A model generated the notes under the pieces. The model was not told the DNA's origin. It worked only from the letters and a program-made list of their open reading frames with translations, and did no database searches. Below, piece after piece: positions 367 to 48,882 of a stretch of 64,000 nucleotides of DNA (positions within the stretch are counted from its first letter, which is position 1; each line of letters opens with the position of its first letter). The stretch is taken from NCBI GenBank assembly GCA_949372765.1, contig CASIAU010000001.1, positions 108,747-172,746 of the forward strand. Direction: 5' to 3'. A program made the position numbers and the translations under genes. This stretch comes from an uncultured Pseudomonadales bacterium. Lineage in GTDB: Bacteria; Pseudomonadota; Gammaproteobacteria; Pseudomonadales; Porticoccaceae.

Positions 367-1140
367 CTAAGTAATCACCAGGGGTCGCTTTGTAATTGGA
401 TGTTCCGAGATAACTGCTTTCACCTTAAATACATCGTCTATTAAGGTTTCAGTTAACACCAGTTCTGGGCTACCTTGCGCCGCAATAACGCCACCATCGA
501 TAACTACTAGGTTATCAGCACAGCGTGCCGCTAAATTTAGATCATGCACAACCATTACAACGCCTACGCCTTTATTAGCAAGCTGGCGGACAATGTCCAA
601 AGTGAGTTTTTGATGTGAAAGATCAAAAGCTGAAGTGGGTTCATCAAGCACTAAAAACTGATCTCCCAACGCGCTGGACTGCCAAATTTGCGCTAGCACT
701 CGCGCCAATTGTACGCGCTGCTTTTCACCCCCGGACATCTGCGTATAAAAACGACGCTGAAGATAGCTTGCGTCCACTAATTCAAGAGCCTCGGCAATAA
801 TTTCCTGATCTTTAACAATTCCAGTCTGATGAGGAATACGCCCTAAACCAACAACTTCATCGGCGGTAAATGAGAAATTAAGTAATGTATGTTGCGGAAG
901 CACCGCTAACATTTGTGCCTTTTCTAATAGCGGCCATTGATTGAGCAAGCGACTATTAAGATACACATCTCCTTTACTGGCAGTCATATCTCCCGTCAGA
1001 ACCTTGAGTAAACTCGATTTACCTGCTCCATTTGGCCCTACAATGGCAGTGACCTTGCCCGCTTCAACCTCTAAACTTATATTGCGCAGTAGATCAAAGC
1101 CCGATAAATGGAGAGAAATGTCTTTAGCCAGCATAGTCAT
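367..1140 (-). CDS. btuD: ABC transporter ATP-binding protein, B12/siderophore (BtuD/FecE/HmuV) type
   Basis: Walker A GPNGAGKSS, ABC signature MSGGEKQRVQLARVLA, Walker B LVLDEPTSAFD. Sits between a FecCD-type permease and a BtuF-like gene in a riboswitch-led operon. Substrate is inferred from context. Confidence 0.85.
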   Translation of the reverse strand: MTMLAKDISLHLSGFDLLRNISLEVEAGKVTAIVGPNGAGKSSLLKVLTGDMTASKGDVYLNSRLLNQWPLLEKAQMLAVLPQHTLLNFSFTADEVVGLGRIPHQTGIVKDQEIIAEALELVDASYLQRRFYTQMSGGEKQRVQLARVLAQIWQSSALGDQFLVLDEPTSAFDLSHQKLTLDIVRQLANKGVGVVMVVHDLNLAARCADNLVVIDGGVIAAQGSPELVLTETLIDDVFKVKAVISEHPITKRPLVIT

Positions 1141-1143
1141 AAG

Positions 1144-2163
1144 CTAAACATCCTTACGTTGCTGTAATAGCAATACGACAAAGAATGGCGCCCCTAAGAT
1201 AGCCGTGAGAACACCTGTTGGTAATTCAGCTGGAATGACCACGACCCGTGCCAAGCTGTCTGCAATCACTAGTAACACTGCGCCTGCCAACCCAGAAGCG
1301 GGGATCAGCCAACGATGATCAGGCCCAATCATTAGCCGTATAATATGCGGCATAATCAAACCCACAAATCCTACCAACCCAGCAACGGCGACGCACACAC
1401 CAACACCCAACGCTGTTAACGCAATTAATCGGCGCTTGACCCACTGCACATTAATGCCTAAGTGGCGCGCCTCGGATTCGCCCAACAACAAGGCATTCAG
1501 CGCCTTGCTATCACGAGGAAATAAACTCATCAATAGGACGGCTACCACACCCATAATAGATACTTTTAACCAACTAGCTCCGCTGAGATTCCCCATCTGC
1601 CAAAGGCTTATTTGTCGTAACATATCATTATCAGAAAAATAACTGAGTAAACTGTTAAGAGCACCAGCCAAAGCACCGATAGCGATCCCGGCCAACAGCA
1701 TAGTAGTGACGGATGTACCCATGCCTGAGGTCGCCAACCGATAGACCAGTAAAGTAGCTAAAAAGCCACCAACAAAAGCACCTATCGACACTAGTGAAAG
1801 TCCGACTAATGCGCCGCCTTGAATAGCGCCACCCGCAGTCACAATCATTATGCTAGCACCTACAGAGGCACCACTCGATACCCCGATTAACGAGGGGTCG
1901 GCTAAAGGGTTTCGAAATAATCCCTGCATGACCGCGCCAGTACTGGCTAATACAGCACCCACAAAAATAGCTAATAGAATTCGCGGTAAACGGATATCAA
2001 ATAAGATAGTGTTAATTTGAGTGCCAGACGCATTTCCAAAAACAGCACTCAATGCGTCTCGCCAAGAAATGCTAACGGTGCCCACAGTCAGGGAGAAAAG
2101 CGCCACAACTGGTAATAAAATTACCAGTATGCCGATTAGCCTTCCCGAAGAAAAATGTCGCAA
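1144..2163 (-). CDS. btuC: FecCD-family ABC permease (BtuC-like)
   Basis: 339 aa polytopic membrane protein with Gly/Ala-rich helices typical of FecCD/BtuC permeases (RLPRILLAIFVGAVLASTGAVMQGLFRNPLADPSLIGVSSGAS). Its stop is 4 nt from the ATPase start. Confidence 0.88.
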   Translation of the reverse strand: MRHFSSGRLIGILVILLPVVALFSLTVGTVSISWRDALSAVFGNASGTQINTILFDIRLPRILLAIFVGAVLASTGAVMQGLFRNPLADPSLIGVSSGASVGASIMIVTAGGAIQGGALVGLSLVSIGAFVGGFLATLLVYRLATSGMGTSVTTMLLAGIAIGALAGALNSLLSYFSDNDMLRQISLWQMGNLSGASWLKVSIMGVVAVLLMSLFPRDSKALNALLLGESEARHLGINVQWVKRRLIALTALGVGVCVAVAGLVGFVGLIMPHIIRLMIGPDHRWLIPASGLAGAVLLVIADSLARVVVIPAELPTGVLTAILGAPFFVVLLLQQRKDV

Positions 2164-2778
2164 TTAATAGTCCACGCCCTTGCGAGCCATAATACCTGAG
2201 TGGTATGCGTGCTTTATATCTTTGACTTCAGAGACAGTATCGACAAGATCTCTTATAGCGCTACCACCGCCTCGACCTGTGACCACAACACTTTGACTCT
2301 TAGGTCGGTTTTTAATCGCTGACAGTACTTTTTTTTCATCAAGATATTTAAAACTTAACATATAAGTCAGTTCATCCATCACCACAAGATGGTAGCTATC
2401 ATCTCTGAGCATTGGCTCAACCACAGCCCAGGTTCGCTCTGCAGCAGCTATATCGCCAGATCGATCTTGAGTATCCCAGGTAAAGCCCGTACCCATCTGA
2501 TAAAAATCCACCTCAGGTAAATTGTTTTTGAGATAAAGCTCTTCACCGGAAAGTTGCTCACCTTTTATGAATTGAACGACACCGACTCGATATCCGTAAC
2601 CCAAGGCACGCAATACCATGCCAAATGCCGAGCTAGTTTTACCCTTGCCATCACCGGTCAACAAAATAGAAACGCCGCGCTCCTCACTTGCCGCTGCAAT
2701 ACTGGCATCAATCTTCTCTTTCTGCTTTTCCATCTTCTTTTGATGTCGCTGATCTTTTTTACTATTTTCGTCGTCCAT
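2164..2778 (-). CDS. cobO: Cob(I)yrinic acid a,c-diamide / cob(I)alamin adenosyltransferase (CobO/BtuR/CobA type)
   Basis: P-loop GDGKGKTSSAFG followed by VGVVQFIKG and VVMDELTY, characteristic of CobA/BtuR. Abuts btuC (2163/2164). Confidence 0.9.
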   Translation of the reverse strand: MDDENSKKDQRHQKKMEKQKEKIDASIAAASEERGVSILLTGDGKGKTSSAFGMVLRALGYGYRVGVVQFIKGEQLSGEELYLKNNLPEVDFYQMGTGFTWDTQDRSGDIAAAERTWAVVEPMLRDDSYHLVVMDELTYMLSFKYLDEKKVLSAIKNRPKSQSVVVTGRGGGSAIRDLVDTVSEVKDIKHAYHSGIMARKGVDY

Positions 2779-2789
2779 CTGTTTAAACC

Positions 2790-3710
2790 TTAGATATTAA
2801 ATTGAATTGCTGAGGGCAATCCCTCAGGCAAAGAATGAATTTCAGGATGTAAAGTGTGGGCCATAATTTCAAGAGCATCTACTAAACGAGGCCCTGGACG
2901 GCTAAAATAAGCATTGCCATCTACTAAAAATACCTTGGTATTTCTACGATTGGAAAGGTTGCCAAAGCCAGCAGTCTTTAGGAATAGATCAACATCTTGT
3001 AGAGATCGCTCAACATTAAAACCACAGAGTGCAATAAAAATAACGTCTGGTTGAGCCGCAATTAACTGCTGCCAGGTACGACGTTGAGAGGGTTCACGTT
3101 TTGCACCGAAACAGGGCTCGCCTCCAGAGAGAGAAATAATCTCAGGGCTCCAGTGTCCTCCGTCAAATAACGGATCAAGCCAATCTAGTAAGGCTACTTT
3201 GGGCTTGTGTTCGGTCCTAATCGTCGCTGACCGCTTAGCCACTGTATCAATGCGAGCCTGCAGTTCTTTTCTATAGCGCACACCCTGCTCAACACAGTTA
3301 GCCGCCAACGCCAAAAGTTCAACTGTATCGAGAACATCATTAAGACAAATTGGCTCTAGATTCACCACCTTCGGATTACCCGATAGCCCGTGAATCGCTT
3401 TAGCTACATCATTACCCGAAACAGCACAGACATCACACAGAGCCTGAGTCACAATTAAATCAGGCTCAAGGTTAATCAAGGCGTCCATCACTAGATCATA
3501 GAGCGCCTCATCATTCTTAAGCTGATCAGTGACTAACCGATCTATTTCAACACTATCTAGTCCAGGAGGAATGCGCGAACTAGTCAGAATCGGAAGGCCA
3601 ACCACAGAGGGTGGATAATCGCATTCATGAGAGACACCGACTAAATGATCACGCAGGCCAAGACCGCAAATTAATTCGGTGGCACTTGGTAACAGTGACA
3701 CTATCTTCAT
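2790..3710 (-). CDS. BtuF-like (class III periplasmic-binding-protein fold) cobalamin-binding protein without signal peptide, predicted cytoplasmic
   Basis: Starts directly with MKIVSLLPSATELICGLGLRDHLVGVSHECDYPP. This is the first strand and motif that follows the cleaved signal in BtuF. No upstream in-frame start is available in the ORF. It overlaps the upstream DUF71 gene by 4 nt. Confidence 0.7.
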   Translation of the reverse strand: MKIVSLLPSATELICGLGLRDHLVGVSHECDYPPSVVGLPILTSSRIPPGLDSVEIDRLVTDQLKNDEALYDLVMDALINLEPDLIVTQALCDVCAVSGNDVAKAIHGLSGNPKVVNLEPICLNDVLDTVELLALAANCVEQGVRYRKELQARIDTVAKRSATIRTEHKPKVALLDWLDPLFDGGHWSPEIISLSGGEPCFGAKREPSQRRTWQQLIAAQPDVIFIALCGFNVERSLQDVDLFLKTAGFGNLSNRRNTKVFLVDGNAYFSRPGPRLVDALEIMAHTLHPEIHSLPEGLPSAIQFNI

Positions 3711-4405
3711 GGTGACTCCTCCAATAGCAGGTCAGCATAGACAAAACCATCCCGATTAACCACCTCCCCAGCCACTAGAGAAATTTTATGTTTAAACATT
3801 GGTCCATCCCAAGCAAATGTGTGAAACTCGCCGTTTTCACCGCAAGGGTCAACAGATAAAGGTAGCACTTCCAATAATTTATTTGAAAATTCACTTCCAA
3901 CCAGCCGCTCGGGCATTACCCGCGGATCGAGACAGGTAATTTTAGCTTTGAGGCCACCACTAATCATCTGTTGAGCCAATTTATCGGTGGGGATTTTCCA
4001 AAGAGGAAATACTAGATCTAATCCAATACCCGCCATCTGTTTCTCACGATAAGCTCGAACATCCTCTAAAAAAAGATCTCCAAATGCTATGACATCCGGT
4101 TGCAATAATAAACACGCATCGTCTAAAGCCTTCGCCATAGCGGCTTCATACTCCAGATTACTGCAAGGCCAAGGTAGAGGGACCTCGATTAAGGGTAATC
4201 GAGCGGCTTTTGCCTGGAGGCGCAACAGCTGTTGCCGGACACCGTGAATCGCAGAGCGATTAAACACACTATTGAAGGTGGTAAGTAATCCTACCACCTC
4301 AATAAGCGAGTCCTGTTGTAACTGATACAAAGTCCAAGCCGAGTCTTTACCGCTACTCCAAGAGAGTAGCACTCGTTTGATCCCTGTATCAGTTGTTGGG
4401 GACAT
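3707..4405 (-). CDS. DUF71 / Dph6-like N-type ATP pyrophosphatase (adenine nucleotide alpha-hydrolase superfamily)
   Basis: PP-loop variant SWSSGKDS near the N-terminus and the family hallmark GENGEFHTF near the C-terminus; 232 aa. Lies between btuB and the cytoplasmic BtuF-like gene. Confidence 0.72.
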   Translation of the reverse strand: MSPTTDTGIKRVLLSWSSGKDSAWTLYQLQQDSLIEVVGLLTTFNSVFNRSAIHGVRQQLLRLQAKAARLPLIEVPLPWPCSNLEYEAAMAKALDDACLLLQPDVIAFGDLFLEDVRAYREKQMAGIGLDLVFPLWKIPTDKLAQQMISGGLKAKITCLDPRVMPERLVGSEFSNKLLEVLPLSVDPCGENGEFHTFAWDGPMFKHKISLVAGEVVNRDGFVYADLLLEESP

Positions 4406-4413
4406 ACATTTTC

Positions 4414-6318
4414 CTACAGGCTGTAGCGCACTCCTAAACTAGCACCAAAACCTAGTGTCTGATAACCGAATACCTCCTCGTAATCATCATCTAGGGCGTT
4501 TTCTAACTTTAGGTAAATATCAAGTTTCTCGCTCGGCGCATAGTTAAGGTTAATATTGAGCAAAGTATGGCTACCTAAATCAACAACTTGCGATGGCTCA
4601 GGGAAAGGTGGAAAGTACACGTCTGTTTGCTCTCCCGTAAATTGAATATTAGTATTTAAATACAGATTATCGGATGCCTGCCATCCTAGGTTTAAACTCG
4701 CGGTATGTTGCGGTCTTCTCACTTCTCTAACCGAATCATCTCCCGTTGAATCAGTGTATGTATAGGCGCCGGAAAGTGACAAAGATTCAGAAAGATTACC
4801 AGCGGCACTTATTTCTCCGCCTCTACGTTCGCTTGCGCCGTCTATATTACTGGACGTATAAGCAAAGGTCGTTGGGTCTAACACAAATCCATTTATTTCA
4901 TTCTCTAAGTCTGCATCAAAAAGAGTCAGCGATAACGTAGCATCACCGCCCATGAGTTGCTGATCAACTCCCAACTCCCAACTTGTAGACTCTTCAGGAA
5001 TTAGATTTGGGTTGCCAATAAAGTTTGTGTAAAAACCAAAACGCTCTGTAAATGTTGGGTTTTTTACCGCCGTACCAACTGCGCTTCGAAGACGTGTATT
5101 CTCTGATAATCGATAAATGGCTTCTGCTCTAAATGTATTTGCACCGTCGAACTCAGAATTATCATCATGTCGACCACTGGCGGCCAGTGTTAATTGGTTA
5201 CTGATATCCGTTCGATACTCAATGGCCAAACTATTAGTATCACGTTCACGATCTTGATTTGGGTCATAAACACCCCAAGAAATTTCGCCTCGCTGCATCC
5301 ACTCTTCTTCCTCCCGCTCAACTAAAACCGAGAGAGTCTGTGCACCCTGAGCCCAAGATAGCGACCCCGTATATTGATATTGGTCTTTGGTCGAAGCGGT
5401 TACATTACCCTGCACACCATCAGCGAAAGCGGTATTATCACTTTTCGCTCTGCTAATCAGAATTTTATGCTGCCAAGCCCCATCTCGAGAGGAATAGTCA
5501 CCTTGCAGGCGCATAGTGCTATTTTCAAATTCCGACATTCTGTCTTGATCTTCAATAATGCCGTCAAAATCATTATCGGCATCAAATTGATTCATACCAT
5601 CAGACTCCCGAGCAGCAAATGAAAGAGTCATTTGATCATTCATCTTCAAGCCTGATTTAAGATTAACAGTAGTATTGCGGTAACCATCATTTTCGGCCCC
5701 TGAGCGGGCGATATTATCTCCCTCTGACTCGACATGACTCAGACCAAAGCGAATATCGAAATCATCTTGTTTGTGACCAAGGCTAAATCCACTGTGATGG
5801 GTAGACCAGCTACCACTTTCGACAAAAAGACCGATACCCGAAGTGTCTGCACTGCGGGTAATAATATTCACAACACCTGCAACCGCATCGCTGCCTCGCA
5901 GCGAGCTCTGTGGACCGCGTACAATTTCAATACGCTCAATGTCAGACGCGGTTAGGGTTCCCCAGCTAAACTCATCACCCTGAGATGGGTCATTAGCCTC
6001 AACACCATCCACCGTGACTAGCAAATGGTTGGCCTCAGCGCCGCGCACACGAATCTGAGTTTGCGACCCTAAGACTCCAACTTGACTCACAGAGAAACCA
6101 GGAACGTCGCGAAGGATGTTACTGAGACTTACCGTGGCACGGTTTTTTAGCTGCTCTCTATCAATAATGGTCACAGCATTACCTGATCGGCTGGCTGCAA
6201 TAGGGACTAAGGAGGCGCTGACCAACACTTCCTGAATTTCTGTATCAATGACAGTCTGTGCCTGTAATGATGTAGCCGACACTAATACTGCTAACGATAA
6301 AAGGAGTATTTTTCTCAT
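4414..6318 (-). CDS. btuB: TonB-dependent outer-membrane cobalamin receptor
   Basis: Signal peptide MRKILLLSLAVLVSATSLQAQ and a TonB-box-like region (EVLVSAS). The plug domain carries IEIVRGPQSSLRGSDAVAGVVNIITR, and the C-terminus ends GASLGVRYSL. Sits directly downstream of a cobalamin riboswitch. Start set at M29 of the track ORF (ATG 6318, preceded by GAGGAAATT). Confidence 0.9.
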   Translation of the reverse strand: MRKILLLSLAVLVSATSLQAQTVIDTEIQEVLVSASLVPIAASRSGNAVTIIDREQLKNRATVSLSNILRDVPGFSVSQVGVLGSQTQIRVRGAEANHLLVTVDGVEANDPSQGDEFSWGTLTASDIERIEIVRGPQSSLRGSDAVAGVVNIITRSADTSGIGLFVESGSWSTHHSGFSLGHKQDDFDIRFGLSHVESEGDNIARSGAENDGYRNTTVNLKSGLKMNDQMTLSFAARESDGMNQFDADNDFDGIIEDQDRMSEFENSTMRLQGDYSSRDGAWQHKILISRAKSDNTAFADGVQGNVTASTKDQYQYTGSLSWAQGAQTLSVLVEREEEEWMQRGEISWGVYDPNQDRERDTNSLAIEYRTDISNQLTLAASGRHDDNSEFDGANTFRAEAIYRLSENTRLRSAVGTAVKNPTFTERFGFYTNFIGNPNLIPEESTSWELGVDQQLMGGDATLSLTLFDADLENEINGFVLDPTTFAYTSSNIDGASERRGGEISAAGNLSESLSLSGAYTYTDSTGDDSVREVRRPQHTASLNLGWQASDNLYLNTNIQFTGEQTDVYFPPFPEPSQVVDLGSHTLLNINLNYAPSEKLDIYLKLENALDDDYEEVFGYQTLGFGASLGVRYSL

Positions 6319-6399
6319 AATTTCCTCTAACACTCTCACCCGAGTGAATGGATTTAAAGTATGCGAGGAACATAGAAAAGGCAGAGGGACAAAGACTGT

Positions 6400-6605
6400 C
6401 AATCAGCACAATACCGCACCCCGCGGTTTGTCTGCGTAGCAAAAGGCAGGTCTCCGGACTCATAAGTGAGCAAACGCTCTATTTGGTAACCTTCCCATGC
6501 CGAAGCACAGTGGTATCCAACCAAATACTCTTATTTACCGTTGCGGGGGCAGTGTCGGGATGACTTTCTGTTTCGTTGCAAAGTGCACCGACTTCCCTTT
6601 TCATT
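6400..6605 (-). promoter_or_regulatory. Cobalamin (B12) riboswitch in the btuB leader
   Basis: The minus strand reads AAAAGGGAAGTCGGTGCA...CTGCCCCCGCAACGGTAA...CCACTGTGCTTCGGCATGGGAAGG...AGTCCGGAGACCTGCC. The last block is the B12 box (plus-strand GGCAGGTCTCCGGACT at 6446-6461). Downstream, TTCCTC could pair with the btuB Shine-Dalgarno GAGGAA, giving a possible RBS sequestrator. Boundaries are approximate. Confidence 0.9.
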
Positions 6606-6664
6606 TCTTTACGCCAAATACTGATATGACGAAAAGAAAACCTTTTGCAGAAGCAAGAGAGGGC

Positions 6665-6772: not shown

Positions 6773-7057
6773 ATGCTCGCAGTGTTGATAAAAAGAACGT
6801 TGGCGTCAGAAATGGAATCGACCTATGAAGCGTTCTCTCGGAAAATGATTCAAGCGGCTGTGCCTGCCAAAGGGTTCATTTCTAGTAAGGCGTTTAAAGA
6901 TTTAAAAGATAGCAAAATCCGCTACACGCTAATCCAAATGGAGTGCTTAGCCGATTGGAAAGCGTGGTATGAGTCTGAGGAGCGCCGTGCTGCTTTGATG
7001 CACATACAGCCTCTGCTAAAAGAAGATGAATACATTTCGATCTTGACGACGGCTTAA
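6773..7057 (+). CDS. Small ABM-fold (antibiotic biosynthesis monooxygenase-like) protein
   Basis: 94 aa with the pattern GFISSKAF..L.D...RYTLIQMECLADWKAWYESEERRAAL, typical of single-domain ABM/ferredoxin-like proteins. Family call is from pattern recognition only. Confidence 0.55.
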   Translation: MLAVLIKRTLASEMESTYEAFSRKMIQAAVPAKGFISSKAFKDLKDSKIRYTLIQMECLADWKAWYESEERRAALMHIQPLLKEDEYISILTTA

Positions 7058-8424
7058 GTTAGCGCCTCTAGGGCATCGGTCACCTTGCGTACAGGCACTA
7101 TCGTCATACCTTTAATAGGTTGTTTAGGCATATTACCTGCTGGGACAATAGCATGGCTAAAGCCATGCTTAGCTGCCTCACGCAAACGCTCTTGACCATT
7201 GGCAACCGGTCGAATTTCACCTGCCAATCCGACCTCACCGAAGACCACTAAATCTTTCGGGAGAGAGGTGTCTCTAAAACTGGATATCACTGACAGTATC
7301 AATGCTAAATCTGCGCTGGTCTCCAAGACTTTGACACCCCCAACAACATTGACAAAAACGTCCTGATCACCGACAGATATACCCCCATGCCGATGCAGTA
7401 CCGCCAGTAGCATTGACAGACGATTATGATCTAGACCCACCGTGACTCGTCGGGGATTACCCAAATGACTATCATCAACTAATGCCTGCAATTCCACTAA
7501 AAGAGGCCGCGTGCCCTCCCAGACCACCATTACCACACTACCTGATGACACCTCTTCTCCACGCTGCAGGAAAATAGCTGAAGGGTTGGGTACTTCGCGC
7601 AGACCCTTATCAGTCATGGCAAAAACGCCAAGTTCATTAACTGCACCAAAGCGGTTCTTATTGCTGCGCAGGGTTCTGAATTGACTGTCGCTAGACCCCT
7701 CTAACATCAGAGAACAATCAATCATATGTTCCAATACTTTGGGTCCCGCCAATGACCCATCTTTTGTAACATGGCCAACCATGATCAGCACAGTTCCAGT
7801 CTGTTTGGCAAACCTTACGAGCATGGCAGCACTCTCTCTCACCTGAGAAATACTGCCAGGCGCAGAGGCAACCTCTGCGATATGCATCACCTGAATTGAG
7901 TCAATGACTACAATTTTTGGGCGCTTTTGCTCGGCGATTGCGCAAACGGTTTCCACTGAAGTCTCGGCCATAATCTCAAGCTTTTTAGTCGGCAAGCCCA
8001 GTCGATTAGCTCGCATGGCCACCTGTTGTGGTGATTCTTCACCGGTAACATACAAAGCACTATTACTTTCTGCCATGGCGCAGAGTGTTTGCAGTAATAC
8101 CGTGCTCTTGCCTGCACCAGGTTCACCACCGAGTAACACACAGGATCCTGGGACAAATCCACCTCCCAGAACTAAATCTAATTCACCGGTACCAGAACTA
8201 ATTCTTGGAATTTCATCAAGAGCAATATCAGCAAGGGTTTTGACCACACTGTCCACATTACCAGTAAAGCCCGAGCGCAATACCGCACCTCCCCTAGAGG
8301 GGCTGCCAAGGCGCACCTCAGAAAGCGTATTCCATGCATTGCATTCACTGCACTGACCCTGCCACTTGCCATAATCTGCGCCGCAATCATTGCAAACATA
8401 GGCTGATTTAGTTTTGATCACCAT
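7054..8424 (-). CDS. radA: DNA repair protein RadA/Sms
   Basis: N-terminal zinc finger CNDCGADYGKWQGQCSECNAWNT, Walker A GGEPGAGKST, KNRFG motif, and a Lon-protease-like C-terminal domain. Confidence 0.97.
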   Translation of the reverse strand: MVIKTKSAYVCNDCGADYGKWQGQCSECNAWNTLSEVRLGSPSRGGAVLRSGFTGNVDSVVKTLADIALDEIPRISSGTGELDLVLGGGFVPGSCVLLGGEPGAGKSTVLLQTLCAMAESNSALYVTGEESPQQVAMRANRLGLPTKKLEIMAETSVETVCAIAEQKRPKIVVIDSIQVMHIAEVASAPGSISQVRESAAMLVRFAKQTGTVLIMVGHVTKDGSLAGPKVLEHMIDCSLMLEGSSDSQFRTLRSNKNRFGAVNELGVFAMTDKGLREVPNPSAIFLQRGEEVSSGSVVMVVWEGTRPLLVELQALVDDSHLGNPRRVTVGLDHNRLSMLLAVLHRHGGISVGDQDVFVNVVGGVKVLETSADLALILSVISSFRDTSLPKDLVVFGEVGLAGEIRPVANGQERLREAAKHGFSHAIVPAGNMPKQPIKGMTIVPVRKVTDALEALT

Positions 8425-8462
8425 AAAACGTTCCCTAATCCATGATTGCTATTTAAGCCCAT

Positions 8463-8482
8463 TACTGTAGTTATGTACAGTA
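8463..8482. promoter_or_regulatory. LexA (SOS) box
   Basis: TACTGTAGTTATGTACAGTA fits CTGT-N8-ACAG and closely matches the gammaproteobacterial consensus TACTG(TA)5CAGTA. Located in the 140-bp divergent region between radA (ATG 8424) and the ORF starting at 8565. Confidence 0.75.
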
Positions 8483-8564
8483 TTAACGCTATCCAAATAG
8501 TATTCGTGTTTTAACAAGTTAGGTTTATGTCGTTCGAGCAATAGCTTTCTGATAGAGTAACCAG

Positions 8565-9686
8565 ATGTCGTTAATTCCTGAAAAACCTATTGTTATTTCT
8601 CCCACCCTAGCCGCAACGATCGGCTTGGAAGAGACCGTTTTCCTGCAGCTTCTGCAAGAGTGTCTGAGTCATGGCAATCCTGTGACTAGTAGCGGTTTTG
8701 ACTGGATTACAGTGCCTGCCGATAAAATTCTCCACCTAGCCCCCTTTTGGAGCCAGACCGATGTGCGGCGTTTGTCATCAAGCCTGCACGAAAAGGGCCT
8801 GTTGTTGATCGGCGGTGGCCCGTTTACCGCGCAACATGATTTTCGCTTTGCCTTTAATGAGCGCTCACCTTCTCAACAAGCACCTGTAATGTCCGGCTCT
8901 ACTGGAACCAGACCTGCAGTGCCAACCAGTAAGCCTCATTCAGCAAAAACTATCGGTGGCAGTTGGCAACCGAGCGAAGATGCTCTTCGTCAGTTGAGTC
9001 AGCTCGGTGTGACACGAGAATTCGCCCAGCAACAAATTCCTCAGTTTGTTAGCTATTGGCGTGAGCGTAATGTGCCGCGCCACAGCTGGGAGTCCAAATA
9101 TATTAAGGAGGTCTGGCGACAGTGGCAGCAGACCGAAACAACCAACAACAGAAGGCGTAAAGAAGTATCCGTCACTGGAGATTGGCGACCCTCAGTTGAT
9201 GCTCTTGATATCTTAGTCAGTAAGGGTGGTATTAATACTAACTTTGTCGAAGACGCTATTCCCGAGTTTATTTTGTACTGGCGAGATCGAGGCGAACTAT
9301 CGAGTACCTGGGACTCAAAATTTATCCAGCATGTTAGGCGTCAGTGGCAGTTCTTTACCGGAATGATGGAACAGGATTCTATGCCTCGGGTTATACCTGC
9401 AAATTGGAAACCCAAAGAGACAGTCTATGATGTCTTGCAAATGGCCAACATAGACCGTCCATTTGCTGAAAAAACTATTCCAGAATTTGTTTTATACTGG
9501 CAGGAGAATGGAACGCCTCAATCTTCCTGGAGTACAAAATTTTTACAATATGTTAAGCGTCAGTGGGCGTATCAAAGTAAATTATTAACGGAACCTTCCA
9601 ATGGCAAACAGCAAGGACATTCAAAAGGTCGCATCCGGGATCGGAGCATCATCGAAAAGCTCACCGACCGCAGCTGGGCATCCTAA
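8565..9686 (+). CDS. Protein with three tandem DnaT-like ssDNA-binding domains
   Basis: 373 aa: an N-terminal region of about 95 aa, a P/S/T/Q-rich linker, then three repeats (aa 134-187, 207-262, 281-334). The repeats share W.P....L.....F....IP(E/Q)F..YW....W..K(F/Y)...V.RQW. This is the same skeleton as the C-terminal domain of E. coli DnaT as I remember it. Confidence 0.7.
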   Translation: MSLIPEKPIVISPTLAATIGLEETVFLQLLQECLSHGNPVTSSGFDWITVPADKILHLAPFWSQTDVRRLSSSLHEKGLLLIGGGPFTAQHDFRFAFNERSPSQQAPVMSGSTGTRPAVPTSKPHSAKTIGGSWQPSEDALRQLSQLGVTREFAQQQIPQFVSYWRERNVPRHSWESKYIKEVWRQWQQTETTNNRRRKEVSVTGDWRPSVDALDILVSKGGINTNFVEDAIPEFILYWRDRGELSSTWDSKFIQHVRRQWQFFTGMMEQDSMPRVIPANWKPKETVYDVLQMANIDRPFAEKTIPEFVLYWQENGTPQSSWSTKFLQYVKRQWAYQSKLLTEPSNGKQQGHSKGRIRDRSIIEKLTDRSWAS

Positions 9687-10263
9687 GGAAGCCAAAGCTT
9701 CTCCTCAGCTGATCGATGCCATCAATCAGGTTTTTGCGCTGTTTCAAGTCAATTATCACAATCAGTATTACAGTGCATTCGGTGACACCACAAAGTCTGA
9801 GAATCTAGCCAAAAATCTTTGGTGTAAGAAGCTAAATAATTTCTCACCAGAAACCATCTGTGGTGCAGCAGAGAAAGTTATTGCCGAAAGTGATTACCTA
9901 CCCACTCTCCATAAAATGCTTAATGCCTGCCGCCATGTGGGTATGCCCGCCGGGCTGCCAAACTCAAGAAAAGCCTATCAGGAGGCCTGCAATAAAATTA
10001 GCCCCAAGGCTGATCAAAAATGGTCTCATCCAGCCGTTTATTTTGCTGGGCGCGATGCTGGTTGGCACATGCTGTCTAACGGAATTGAATCCAAAGTGAT
10101 GCCGGTCTTTAGCGAGATCTATCAACAATACTGCGACCGTGTTTTAGCCGGTGAGAAGTTTATTATCGAAAAATCGAGCACTATCCCTGAACTACCAGAA
10201 TTACCGGCTACCAAAAAGCATAATCAGCAGCAACTTGATAACCTCAAAAAACTGTTAGATTAA
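9601..10263 (+). CDS. Phage lambda P-like (replication protein P family) protein
   Basis: 220 aa. Blocks INQVFALF, YLPTLHKMLNACR, PAGLPNSRKAYQEAC and WSHPAVYF line up with the lambda P segments INGVFSQL, FLPSPGQFVAWCR, TAGLPNVSELVDMVYEYC and WKSNAHYW (lambda sequence from memory). The only ATG/GTG/TTG start in the 5' part of this frame is at 9601, which overlaps the upstream ORF by 86 nt. Confidence 0.6.
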   Translation: MANSKDIQKVASGIGASSKSSPTAAGHPKEAKASPQLIDAINQVFALFQVNYHNQYYSAFGDTTKSENLAKNLWCKKLNNFSPETICGAAEKVIAESDYLPTLHKMLNACRHVGMPAGLPNSRKAYQEACNKISPKADQKWSHPAVYFAGRDAGWHMLSNGIESKVMPVFSEIYQQYCDRVLAGEKFIIEKSSTIPELPELPATKKHNQQQLDNLKKLLD

Positions 10264-10283
10264 ATATCTTCGAGACATAAGAC

Positions 10284-12053
10284 ATGGCATTGCAACTACT
10301 GATACACAACTCAACCGCACGGCGTATGGCGAAAACCATACTCAATGGGTTTCGCAGCTATTTTGCTGATTACCTCAACTCAACGCTAACCGCAAAAGCA
10401 CGGTTTGAGAAAGCCGACTGGCATGGCGTGAGTCAAGCCAATGTTGAACGTTTAGAACTCTACAAGGACAAGGTTGCTCAGACTGTTCAATATCTTGAGG
10501 TGGTGACCAATAAAGATATCGCTAACCTACCACTTTGGAGTGAGGCTAAAAAGGCTTACACCCAATTGGTATTTAATTTCCCTAATTTTGAGATTGCCGA
10601 GACTTTCTTTAATTCAGTGTTCAGTGATATTCATGATCATGACAAAATTAGCGATGATATTATTTATGTACTGTCATCCCAGTTAATAGAAGCGCCCGAA
10701 GCGGAATACAGCATTTTTGTGCGCTACGAAGGTGAGAATTTTCGGGACACCTTTCAGCGAATTCTCGAGGAGGCGGAGTTCTCCCTGCCGATGGAAGATC
10801 TCTCTCTAGATCTCGATTGTATAATGGCTGTGTTTAATCAAGAAATTGTCCCTCATTTAAAGGGGGCTCCGGAGACCATTAAATTCGATTTGCTGGAGTC
10901 AACTTTTTACCGCAGTAAAGCTGCCTATATGGTGGGACGGATAGTGAATGGTGATCAGACCTTCCCCATGGCGCTGGTTGTGCTCAACAATGAACAGGGT
11001 GCGCTCTACGTAGATACTGCGTTATTTAATGCCGATGAGTTGAGTGTTATATTTAGCTTTACCCAAAATCATTTTATGGTCGACGCTCCTCTACCTTATC
11101 AATACGCTCTTTTTCTGAAGAATTTGGTACCCAATAAACTCGATTATGAAATTTATAATTCTTTAGGGTTTCCAAAGCATGCAAAAACTGAGTTTTATCG
11201 ACAATTGGTGGGCCATTTGGAAAACTCCAGTGATGAATTTGTTATCGCCCCAGGCATCAAAGGTATGGTGATGACCGTATTTACGCTACCCTCTTACAAC
11301 ATTGTTTTTAAAATAATTAAGGATAAGTTTGCGCCGCCAAAAGAGGTAACTCACCAAATTGTGCGAGAGAAATATCGTCTGGTTTCGCGCCATGACCGTA
11401 TCGGGCGCATGGCTGATACACAAGAATTTGATAATCTGGTTTTCCCACTTAATCGTTTTTCTAAAGAATTGGTCTCCGAATTACAAAAACTTGCGCCATC
11501 CCAAATAGAGATTAGAGACGACACACTTCTGATAAAGCACCTGTATACCGAGCGCTACATGACACCCCTAAATATCTTCCTTGAAAGTGCCGATGACGCG
11601 GAGATAAGAAGCGCTATGGAAGAATACGGAAACTGTATCAAACAATTGGCGGCGGCGAATATATTCCCGGGCGACATGCCGTTAAAGAACTTCGGCGTTA
11701 CCCGACATGGTCGTGTGGTGTTCTATGACTATGATGAGATCGCCACTCTCACTGATTGTAATTTCCGCAAAATCCCTCAAGCGAGAACAGAACAAGAAGA
11801 GATGCAGTCTGGCACTTGGTATACGGTGGGCCCTGACGATATTTTCCCTGAAGAATTCAGGTTATTTTTCTCAGGAAATATTAAAGCACGTAAAATGTTT
11901 GAAGAGATTCACAGTGAACTCTATGAGGTTACCTTCTGGACTGACCTGCAAGAAAAAATTCGTAACGGCTATGTGGTTGATATCTTCCCTTACCGACGAG
12001 TAAAGAGGTTCGATCGTGGTAAAAGCTCTCAACTAGAGGTTTTTGCTGACTAA
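10284..12053 (+). CDS. aceK: Isocitrate dehydrogenase kinase/phosphatase
   Basis: 589 aa. N-terminus AKTILNGFRSYFADYL...ARFEKADWHGV and FEIAETFFNSVF parallel E. coli AceK (ILQGFDAQYGRFL...QRFEQADWHAV, FEIAESFFNSVY). Length also fits. Confidence 0.92.
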   Translation: MALQLLIHNSTARRMAKTILNGFRSYFADYLNSTLTAKARFEKADWHGVSQANVERLELYKDKVAQTVQYLEVVTNKDIANLPLWSEAKKAYTQLVFNFPNFEIAETFFNSVFSDIHDHDKISDDIIYVLSSQLIEAPEAEYSIFVRYEGENFRDTFQRILEEAEFSLPMEDLSLDLDCIMAVFNQEIVPHLKGAPETIKFDLLESTFYRSKAAYMVGRIVNGDQTFPMALVVLNNEQGALYVDTALFNADELSVIFSFTQNHFMVDAPLPYQYALFLKNLVPNKLDYEIYNSLGFPKHAKTEFYRQLVGHLENSSDEFVIAPGIKGMVMTVFTLPSYNIVFKIIKDKFAPPKEVTHQIVREKYRLVSRHDRIGRMADTQEFDNLVFPLNRFSKELVSELQKLAPSQIEIRDDTLLIKHLYTERYMTPLNIFLESADDAEIRSAMEEYGNCIKQLAAANIFPGDMPLKNFGVTRHGRVVFYDYDEIATLTDCNFRKIPQARTEQEEMQSGTWYTVGPDDIFPEEFRLFFSGNIKARKMFEEIHSELYEVTFWTDLQEKIRNGYVVDIFPYRRVKRFDRGKSSQLEVFAD

Positions 12054-48417: not shown

Positions 48418-48774
48418 TTATCGTTTAATCGGACGCTTGGGACCTTTACGGGTGCGCGCGTTCGTCTTGGTACGCTGTCCGCGTACCGGCAAATTACGTC
48501 GATGACGTAGGCCTCTATAGCAACCTAAATCCATCAACCGCTTAATGTTCATACTTGTCTCGCGACGTAGATCCCCTTCAACTTCGTTCTGCCCAACGGC
48601 AGCACGCAACTGATCAAGTTGACCTTCGTCCAATGCAGAAATTTTAGTGTCTCCTGCAATGCCCACTTCCGCACAGATTTTCTCCGCGGTTGGACGTCCG
48701 ATACCAAACACATAAGTCAGTGAAACCACTGTGTGTTTATTATCTGGAATGTTGACACCGGCAATACGGGCCAT
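48418..48774 (-). CDS. rpsM: 30S ribosomal protein S13
   Basis: [14 protein letters not shown]... Confidence 0.99.
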
Positions 48775-48882
48775 TCACATTACTCCACTTATACTATGGG
48801 TTTAATCGGTACTCCAACACCCCGCAGCAACACTGCGAAAAGGCGCGGTAGAATACCGATAGATCTAACAAAAATCAACCAA

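Follow-up and report, generated by a model that had tools for sequence, protein, structure and literature searches.

The Chromosomal Gene Pair dopC/dopE of a Porticoccaceae Bacterium: Relatives of Lambda O/P with a Predicted Role in Replicative Helicase Loading

We analyzed a 64-kb stretch of DNA from an uncultured bacterium of the Porticoccaceae (hereafter the window, positions 1-64,000, in whose numbering coordinates are given) and found that it carries the gene pair dopC/dopE, which was named by Brezellec et al. (2017, Genome Biol Evol 9:1561; PMC5509034) and is already known as a computational prediction. The initial annotation of this DNA had presented the pair as a new module for helicase loading or replication restart that might be linked to the SOS response; it is not new. 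We consider it probable (about 0.7) that these genes correspond to dopC and dopE as orthologues from the SAR92/Porticoccaceae and represent a lambda O/P-type phage module that became chromosomally fixed in the ancestor of the Cellvibrionales. The published role as the main replicative helicase loader is better supported than an accessory, damage-inducible role.

In the phyloprofiling of 2017, dopE, which has the lambda P profile, was the single gene specific to the Cellvibrionales and to such Oceanospirillales as are devoid of both dciA and dnaC/dnaI, and it was always preceded by dopC, a lambda-O-like gene with a domain of the DnaT C-terminal type (PMC5509034). The pair was described as resident and not prophage-borne, with neither iterons nor DnaA boxes in dopC and with replication starting near gidA-dnaA, and DopCE was proposed as a third type of replicative helicase loader (PMC5509034). 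A survey from 2024 reported that many Cellvibrionaceae have lambda-P-like loader genes (PMC11087808). Among the helicase loaders proposed for bacteria, DopE (with a putative function) is the sole one of the lambda P type; if this role is true, every free-living bacterial lineage would need a dedicated helicase loader, and DopE would represent a third, ATP-independent solution to loading.

Results

DopE Is a Relative of Lambda P

The downstream gene of the pair, dopE, encodes a protein of 220 amino acids (aa) that the initial annotation had placed in the lambda P family, and Pfam, PHROG, hhalign and Foldseek agree on this placement. DopE matched PF06992 (Replication protein P) with 32.3 bits, above the cut-off of 26 (E=1e-7), residues 41-187 corresponding to positions 3-159 of the 162 in the profile, and PHROG_109 ('P-like helicase loader') with E=3.5e-16. 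PF06992 was the sole significant domain match, and DopE contains neither an AAA+ ATPase nor an IstB/DnaC domain. We fetched the lambda P reference (J02459, 39582-40283) and aligned it by hhalign to a profile of 13 DopE sequences (E=0.0018, probability 15%, columns 37-223 against 35-230); the identity of DopE to lambda P is ~16-20%. The aligned lambda P blocks comprise INGVFSQ, FLPSPGQFVAWCR, TAGLPN, EYC and WKSNAHYW, and all four blocks that had earlier been quoted are present in J02459 lambda P and aligned as described. With the AlphaFold2 (AF2) model of DopE (predicted local distance difference test, pLDDT, of 79), the top PDB matches in Foldseek were the lambda P chains of 9oa1, a DnaB-lambda P complex from cryo-electron microscopy (2025), with probability 1.0 and alignments to chains Z, Y and V; the best 9oa1 chain was the sole match at E<=1e-3. 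A search of PDB sequences with the DopE profile hidden Markov model (HMM) gave no match, lambda P included, so that homology is shown via Pfam, hhalign and the fold search. NCBI names the protein 'replication protein P [Porticoccaceae bacterium]', and the NCBIfam collection has no model for DopE or DopC.

By homology and fold, DopE is a lambda P relative in which all four lambda P domains are represented (Table 1). The segment comparable to domain I forms a helix at residues 5-16, has a pLDDT below 50 at residues 1-6 and 11-29, and is followed by residues 30-36 that are hypervariable among orthologues; in lambda P, domain I (residues 1-29) is disordered in solution (PMC12661323). The two compact helical domains were modeled with a pLDDT of 80-91, and hhalign paired the C-terminal segment of DopE with lambda P residues 193-230. 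Since domain IV of lambda P, its lasso at the C-terminus, inserts at the DH-LH junction of DnaB (PMC12661323), the equivalent segment and helix in the DopE model suggest that DopE might bind DnaB via its DH-LH junctions.

The dopE start codon at 9601 is the sole in-frame ATG, GTG or TTG ahead of the conserved domain. Within the 90%-identity cluster of DopE, public gene calls are often shortened to 174, 171, 115 or 64 aa, likely because gene finders penalize the 86-nucleotide (nt) overlap with dopC, so that in automated annotation the lasso-like segment at the N-terminus and a portion of the P domain are frequently missing.

DopC Combines an O-Type N-Terminus and Tail with Three DnaT Domains

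DopC contains three PF17948 DnaT domains (Pfam, E=7e-66) and is named 'DnaT-like ssDNA-binding domain-containing protein' at NCBI. A local HMM recovered three DnaT repeats in each of 73 DopC orthologues, and the repeat period at the DNA level across the DnaT units is 219-222 nt. The N-terminus had no Pfam match; residues 2-82 matched PHROG_6493 ('DnaD-like helicase loader', E=1.7e-4), and tblastn matched residues 2-209 and 3-130 to phage O-like and DnaD-like initiators with E-values down to 4e-9. The AF2 model has a winged helix of helices and strands (residues 13-97), then a linker that is disordered (103-127) and three helical units; the tail (343-373) is disordered as well. Foldseek placed the DnaT C-terminal domain (CTD) first (6aeq/4ou6, probability 0.97-1.0); the next matches were winged-helix regulators, the Rep-DNA complex of an iteron plasmid (5kbj) and the N-terminal domain of DnaD (2v79). 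DopC of the window, as its published namesake, joins a lambda-O-like N-terminal helix-turn-helix domain (PHROG, tblastn and the winged-helix model) to DnaT-type domains, here three PF17948 copies, in place of the rest of O.

The C-terminal tail of DopC is near-invariant throughout the order (consensus ...RIRDRSIIxxL[S/T]DRSWA[S], 73 loci); the tail peptide is RDRSIIEKLTDRSWAS. The D-x-[S/D]-W-[A/I] motif of this tail is also located at, or close to, the C-terminal end of lambda O (TNTDWIYGVDL) and of the O protein of phage Ab31 (NDTSWAVGLEQDLF), and likewise in several O-like proteins from IMG/VR that are encoded immediately 5' of P-like genes, suggesting that DopC keeps an O-type C-terminal end besides its O-type N-terminus. 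A BLASTP comparison of DopC with Ab31 O was not significant, and Ab31 O has no Pfam DnaT domain. The C-terminal part of lambda O contacts P, and by analogy the DopC tail is a putative DopE-binding peptide.

The Two Genes Share a Conserved Dual-Coding Overlap

As initially annotated, dopE overlaps the triple-DnaT gene by 86 nt in the +1 frame. The overlap was found in 73/73 loci in identical phase, with a length of 83-101 nt (mostly 86 or 89). Over the dopE ATG, DopC has only N, H, D or Y (xAT codons), then G, a codon choice indicating that the dopE ATG is preserved and itself under selection. Codon-position entropy tracks the DopE frame (its N-terminal helix) in the 5' part of the overlap and the DopC frame in the last 57 nt; just past the dopC stop, all three codon positions turn highly variable. 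A weak Shine-Dalgarno-like GGAA lies inside dopC (Table 1), most loci have a purine-rich GGA, AGG or GAG at -8 to -13 of dopE, and the local RNA around the dopE start is unstructured (z=+1.3). We also considered a programmed +1 frameshift that would yield a DopC-DopE fusion as the main product, and rejected it because the DopC tail is conserved to its stop and the dopE ATG is selected.

Table 1. Features of the radA-dopC-dopE region (positions in window numbering).
Feature	Position	Strand	Evidence or remark
radA (sms), divergent	7054-8424	-	ATG at 8424
LexA-type operator (TA)CTGTAGTTATGTACAG(TA)	8465-8480	.	Palindrome TACTGT-N8-ACAGTA; assigned to radA, not to dopCE
Block (G/C)TCGTTC, conserved, at -35 in the predicted dopC promoter	8529-8535	+	Most Porticoccaceae loci
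Predicted extended -10 element TGATAGAGT	8550-8558	+	6 nt 5' of the dopC ATG
dopC, lambda-O-derived companion gene	8565-9686	+	373 aa; TAA stop at 9684-9686
DopC aa 1-100, N-terminal winged helix (phage O / DnaD-N / iteron-Rep type)	8565-8864	+	PHROG, tblastn, AF2, Foldseek
DnaT-like ssDNA-binding repeat 1, aa 131-192	8955-9140	+	PF17948, local HMM, Foldseek
DnaT-like repeat 2, aa 203-264	9171-9356	+	PF17948, local HMM
DnaT-like repeat 3, aa 276-342	9390-9590	+	PF17948, local HMM
Shine-Dalgarno-like GGAA inside dopC	9590-9593	+	7 nt ahead of the dopE ATG; weak evidence
DopC C-terminal tail GRIRDRSIIEKLTDRSWAS with lambda-O-type 'D-x-S/D-W-A' end motif	9627-9683	+	Conservation in 73 loci
Dual-coding overlap, dopC frame 0 / dopE frame +1, 86 nt	9601-9686	+	Reading-frame coordinates, 73-locus comparison
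dopE, domesticated lambda-P-like helicase-loader homologue	9601-10263	+	220 aa, ATG start
DopE aa 1-34, short helix and disordered linker, comparable to lambda P domain I (N-terminal lasso)	9601-9702	+	AF2
DopE aa 35-182, two compact helical domains (35-115, 120-182), comparable to lambda P domains II and III	9703-10146	+	Pfam, AF2, Foldseek
DopE aa 183-220, extended segment and terminal helix, comparable to lambda P domain IV (C-terminal lasso)	10147-10260	+	AF2, hhalign

The Pair Is a Resident of Cellvibrionales Chromosomes

The nearest DopE proteins come from Porticoccaceae, SAR92 and HTCC2207, and all 80 retrieved genome loci belong to the Cellvibrionales (Porticoccaceae/SAR92/HTCC2207, Halieaceae, Cellvibrionaceae, Simiduia or Pseudomaricurvus); by nearest homologues and loci alike, the window pair falls into the host group known for dopE (Cellvibrionales or dopE-bearing Oceanospirillales). 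A full-length dopC adjoins dopE, immediately 5' of it, in all suitable loci, and the order radA (divergent)-dopC-dopE, often followed by aceK, is kept in 60 or more loci. The association noticed in the single stretch extends to related genomes, both genes being co-conserved and syntenic in 73 loci. The neighbors of dopCE in the window are B12-uptake genes, radA, aceK and an ExeA-like gene, and no phage genes were found around the pair there, in line with the core chromosomal, non-prophage setting assumed at the outset.

Median ratios of nonsynonymous to synonymous substitution rates (dN/dS), recomputed on close pairs because distant pairs were saturated, were 0.05 and 0.06 for the two genes (0.05 for dopE) and indicate strong purifying selection. 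With RadA distances as the yardstick of inheritance (radA being a linked marker and not a genome-wide species tree), the distances of DopC and DopE were correlated at r=0.89-0.91 (0.89 for DopE; Mantel 0/999), and those of DopC and DopE with each other at r=0.945. The dopCE locus contains no iterons, its sole repeats being the coding repeats with a period of 219-222 nt, and no DnaA box (<=1 mismatch) was found within 6791-11195; dopC thus lacks both hallmarks of an origin. In its non-prophage context, RadA-congruent distances and purifying selection, dopE behaves as a resident gene; it is a homologue of a phage replication gene and not itself part of a phage replication module, being chromosomal with no phage genes or iterons nearby. 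On these sequence comparisons, dopCE is vertically inherited and chromosomally resident across the order.

In most of the SAR92 loci (L001-L057), aceK, encoding isocitrate dehydrogenase kinase/phosphatase, starts 13-100 nt past dopE. The dopE-aceK junction of the window spans 10264-10286, with the aceK ATG at 10284 and no terminator detected between the genes, and aceK may be co-transcribed with the helicase-loader genes.

Relatives in Phages Point to the Origin of the Pair

DopE shares 24-41% identity with P-like proteins of phages and prophages. An initiator of a Stenotrophomonas phage has a DopC-like N-terminal domain together with one PF17948 domain, and among 29 IMG/VR loci carrying a P-like gene (our mobile sample), four were shown by the repeat HMM to encode, 5' of the P-like gene, an O-like protein that has just one DnaT domain. 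In one locus (IMGVR_UViG_2523231066_000003, 4082-5726; L090), the O-like gene, coding for a winged helix and one DnaT-like domain, overlaps the P-like gene by 86 nt; the O/P overlap is 4 nt in lambda and 1 nt in Ab31. This locus is a clear prophage (CI/LexA-like repressor, lysozyme, terminase) and may serve as a model of the phage ancestor of dopCE. The nearest mobile P-like relative found, with 38% identity to DopE and 190 aa, is encoded on the viral contig IMGVR_UViG_3300003318_000003 (L084, 4519-5555); it has no N-terminal extension, it overlaps the preceding gene by 1 nt, and the 154-aa protein encoded by that gene contains in its C-terminal region RTRDIPLQESLTDCSWA, which is near the DopC tail RIRDRSIIEKLTDRSWAS.

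Because phage O-like proteins with a DnaT domain exist and L090 has an overlap of 86 nt, the DnaT-type domain and the long overlap were, as judged from these sequences, probably inherited from the phage ancestor and not gained after domestication. A substitution after domestication is less parsimonious, since O-like proteins of (pro)phages already carry a DnaT domain. In none of the 29 loci did tblastn detect a DopC-like protein, and the triplication of the DnaT domain therefore seems to be specific to the chromosomal lineage.

The clear phage ancestry, with the identities given above, could also be taken to mean that dopCE plays no part in the replication of its host and is either what is left of a decaying prophage or a mobile decoy against phages, titrating DnaB or phage P proteins; a protective side benefit of the pair was speculated upon in 2017 (PMC5509034). 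However, there are no phage genes nearby, position and architecture are conserved order-wide with vertical inheritance, both genes are under strong purifying selection, and the viral loci surveyed by tblastn contain no DopC-like protein. We regard a remnant or decoy as very improbable.

The LexA Box Is Assigned to radA

The initial annotation had noted a LexA box ahead of the pair, and a perfect palindrome is indeed present in the radA-dopC spacer (Table 1); perfect CTGT-N8-ACAG sites number 4 in the window against 0.7 expected. Read as an operator of dopCE, it would make the pair a LexA-controlled, damage-inducible accessory primosome or helicase reloader that works beside a canonical loader. 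In favor of this explanation are the position of the palindrome, 85 nt ahead of the dopC ATG, its retention in the subset of Porticoccaceae in which radA adjoins dopC, and the association of DnaT domains with restart in E. coli.

The distribution of the box in related genomes is in conflict with such control. Its distance from the radA ATG is 41 nt in the window, and in much of the Porticoccaceae (L001-L060) it is conserved at about this spacing. Some 22 related loci have a GNAT acetyltransferase gene, alone or with an SDR gene after it, between radA and dopC, and there the box is 39-73 nt from radA and 650-1400 nt from dopC; as it stays close to radA despite one or two inserted genes, it tracks radA and not dopC. 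These insertions are on the plus strand in many SAR92 relatives (L009, 4397-4900; L013, 3741-4918). Most of the order has no such box: among the sampled loci, it is missing from several Porticoccaceae lineages, those of the HTCC2207 type and HTCC2207 itself included, and from all those outside this family (Simiduia, Pseudomaricurvus, Halieaceae and Cellvibrionaceae), all of which retain dopCE.

Furthermore, dopC has a promoter-like element of its own. The sequence TGnTAnAnT is found 6-7 nt ahead of the dopC ATG in 64 of the 72 orthologous loci used for the promoter element, across the Cellvibrionales, also in loci with inserted genes and in distant families whose intergenic DNA is unalignable. 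The geometry of this extended -10 element places the predicted transcription start at or beside the A of the dopC ATG, and no Shine-Dalgarno sequence fits between element and ATG in the window; judged by conservation, dopC would be expressed from its own promoter as a leaderless or near-leaderless mRNA. With this start, the LexA box lies at about -92, outside the core promoter. At the -35 position, a block reads CTCGTTC or CTCGTCC in most Porticoccaceae loci, in which the surrounding intergenic DNA is unalignable; it may be a site for a regulator. The block resembles neither a sigma-70 -35 hexamer nor a DnaA box. In a scan for sigma-70 promoters and terminators, the spacer between radA and dopC showed no canonical promoter, and the DNA past dopE no terminator.

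An operator that lies over the gene's own promoter and is conserved with the gene, as in a LexA regulon, is thus not what dopCE displays. From its position and distribution, we conclude that radA is the gene under control of the LexA operator in the intergenic region that it shares with dopC and that LexA control is not a conserved property of dopCE. Since radA is not known as a classical SOS gene of E. coli, it appears to have joined the LexA regulon in this clade specifically; a literature search on LexA control of radA in the Gammaproteobacteria returned nothing useful. A damage-inducible accessory role is also at odds with the reported lack of a canonical loader in the order (PMC5509034; PMC11087808) and with the dN/dS of ~0.05, which fits a housekeeping gene, and we hold it to be improbable. 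The SOS-linked control originally proposed is accordingly not retained. Of the non-canonical helicase loader, one part stands, namely a homologue of lambda-P-family loaders with a DnaT partner, and the other, its damage-inducible accessory role, gives way to the better-supported role as main loader.

Discussion

A Working Model for DopCE

If the pair is the main replicative helicase loader, the following sequence of events might be envisaged. A constitutive promoter abutting dopC would give rise to a leaderless bicistronic mRNA (in SAR92 perhaps a tricistronic one with aceK), and dopE would be translated on this shared transcript from the internal Shine-Dalgarno-like element and ATG, coupling both products. 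Through the lasso helix at its C-terminus, DopE would attach to DnaB at the DH-LH junctions and, like lambda P, open the ring in a manner that needs no ATP. The conserved LTDRSWA tail of DopC would bind DopE, much as the C-terminal region of lambda O binds P, and the three covalently linked DnaT domains of DopC would form a short, pre-formed DnaT-like filament that grips single-stranded DNA (ssDNA) where DnaB is deposited, i.e., at a DnaA-opened oriC and possibly at abandoned forks. In E. coli, ssDNA is wrapped by filaments of the DnaT CTD, and each junction between two domains holds 2 nt (PMC13377028; PMC4132743). With respect to the site of action, the phyletic argument of 2017 favors oriC, with restart as a possible second role. 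We also considered that DopE might load RadA, the DnaB-like helicase encoded next door, and found this unsupported, as the DH-LH elements bound by the lasso of lambda P are DnaB-specific (PMC12661323).

An alternative is that dopCE is expressed constitutively and is a restart-only analogue of DnaT/DnaC that works with PriA, oriC using some other unknown factor or none. The three DnaT-type domains of DopC fit this explanation, since the filament of their E. coli counterpart takes over lagging-strand ssDNA from PriB (PMC13377028); fork reactivation is one of the options listed for DopC by the authors of 2017 (PMC5509034), and the pair adjoins the recombination gene radA in most Cellvibrionales. 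However, dopE emerged from phyloprofiling as the sole gene specific to the clade without dciA and dnaC, lambda P itself works at an origin, and O-like initiators of (pro)phages carry one DnaT domain, so that this domain is not specific to restart. We therefore think that a role in restart alone is unlikely.

Several points weigh against a main-loader role for DopCE in the form given above. The literature we found contains no experiment on DopC or DopE, and papers of 2024-2025 still say 'suggested'; the absence of dciA and dnaC from the hosts is taken from PMC5509034 and PMC11087808, the window being 64 kb of a genome. The sequence similarity to lambda P is remote, given the empty PDB search and an hhalign probability of 15% obtained with one lambda P sequence. 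It is from replication restart, and not from initiation at oriC, that domains of the DnaT type are known, which makes a restart-only role possible. The dopC promoter and the leaderless start are deduced from conservation, and the sigma-70 scan saw no canonical promoter. Finally, the LexA box shares the intergenic region with dopC in this subclade and some indirect influence is possible; the box always lies in the divergent region 5' of whichever plus-strand gene follows radA, which would allow regulation by read-through.

A more elaborate version, which we put forward tentatively and regard as doubtful, would see DopCE as a dual system. At oriC, DopE would open DnaB and DopC would hand it to DnaA-melted DNA, and at abandoned forks the three covalently linked DnaT domains of DopC, as a ready-made mini-filament, would take over the lagging-strand ssDNA, so that the tasks of DnaC, DnaT and perhaps PriB would be merged in two proteins; the stoichiometry of these would be set by the leaderless dopC and the overlapped start of dopE, and in SAR92-type genomes the radA-proximal LexA site might add a modest, damage-dependent boost by way of the divergent control region common to both genes.

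Other Elements of the Window

A cobalamin riboswitch (RF00174; Rfam, 105 bits) at 6428-6660 on the minus strand lies 5' of a gene for a TonB-dependent receptor (4414-6402), beyond which a B12-uptake/BtuR operon is located at 367-4405. An Alpha_RBS element (Rfam, 41.5 bits; 48742-48875, minus strand) points to the alpha operon of ribosomal proteins, which speaks for the window being core chromosomal DNA.

Comparison with Known Systems

The window pair agrees with the DopC/DopE of Brezellec et al. in the two genes and their order, in the host order, in the chromosomal non-prophage context and in the lack of iterons and DnaA boxes; orthologues from Simiduia, a genus in their data set, share 46-49% identity and synteny with it, and nothing essential differs. 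Beyond that paper, we observed the three DnaT repeats, the overlap of 83-101 nt, the leaderless-type promoter element and the O-type tail of DopC; homology to O was limited there to the N-terminus (PMC5509034), whereas DopC as seen here also has an O-type C-terminal tail.

With lambda O/P, the pair shares the gene order O to P. DopE has the fold of P, its four-domain layout and both lasso segments, and DopC has the type of winged-helix N-terminus of O and the D-x-D/S-W motif at the extreme C-terminus. Unlike the phage genes, dopCE is chromosomal and vertically inherited, its first gene contains no iterons of the ori-lambda kind, three DnaT domains form the middle of DopC and replace the rest of the O C-terminal domain, and the two genes overlap by 86 nt instead of 4 nt.

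The parallel to E. coli dnaT-dnaC, an operon for the adaptor of the PriA-dependent restart primosome and an AAA+ helicase loader, that was drawn in the initial annotation is a fair one, and Figure 3 of the 2017 paper likewise sets DopCE beside DnaT/DnaC (PMC5509034). In both systems, a gene for a DnaT-type ssDNA-binding domain precedes that of a DnaB loader of phage origin, and the fold of the DnaT CTD is shared. In contrast to DnaC, DopE does not belong to the AAA+ ATPases and lacks the IstB/DnaC domain; DopC has no N-terminal oligomerization domain as in DnaT and instead consists of a winged helix and three covalently linked CTD copies; and the role proposed for DopCE is in initiation, not in restart alone.

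VdhL1 and VdhL2 of the Vibrionaceae are also virus-derived, non-homologous replacements of dciA with remote similarity to PF06992, and they are often transferred together with an O-like partner gene (PMC11087808). They constitute a separate family, however, which PfamScan does not detect as lambda P, and are distributed sporadically via horizontal transfer, whereas dopCE is ancient and vertically inherited. The cellular task proposed for DopE is that of DciA (DUF721), the ancestral loader, which is described in PMC9912922 as binding the LH-DH module of DnaB. DciA is reported to be absent from the order (PMC5509034) and is unrelated to DopE in both sequence and fold.

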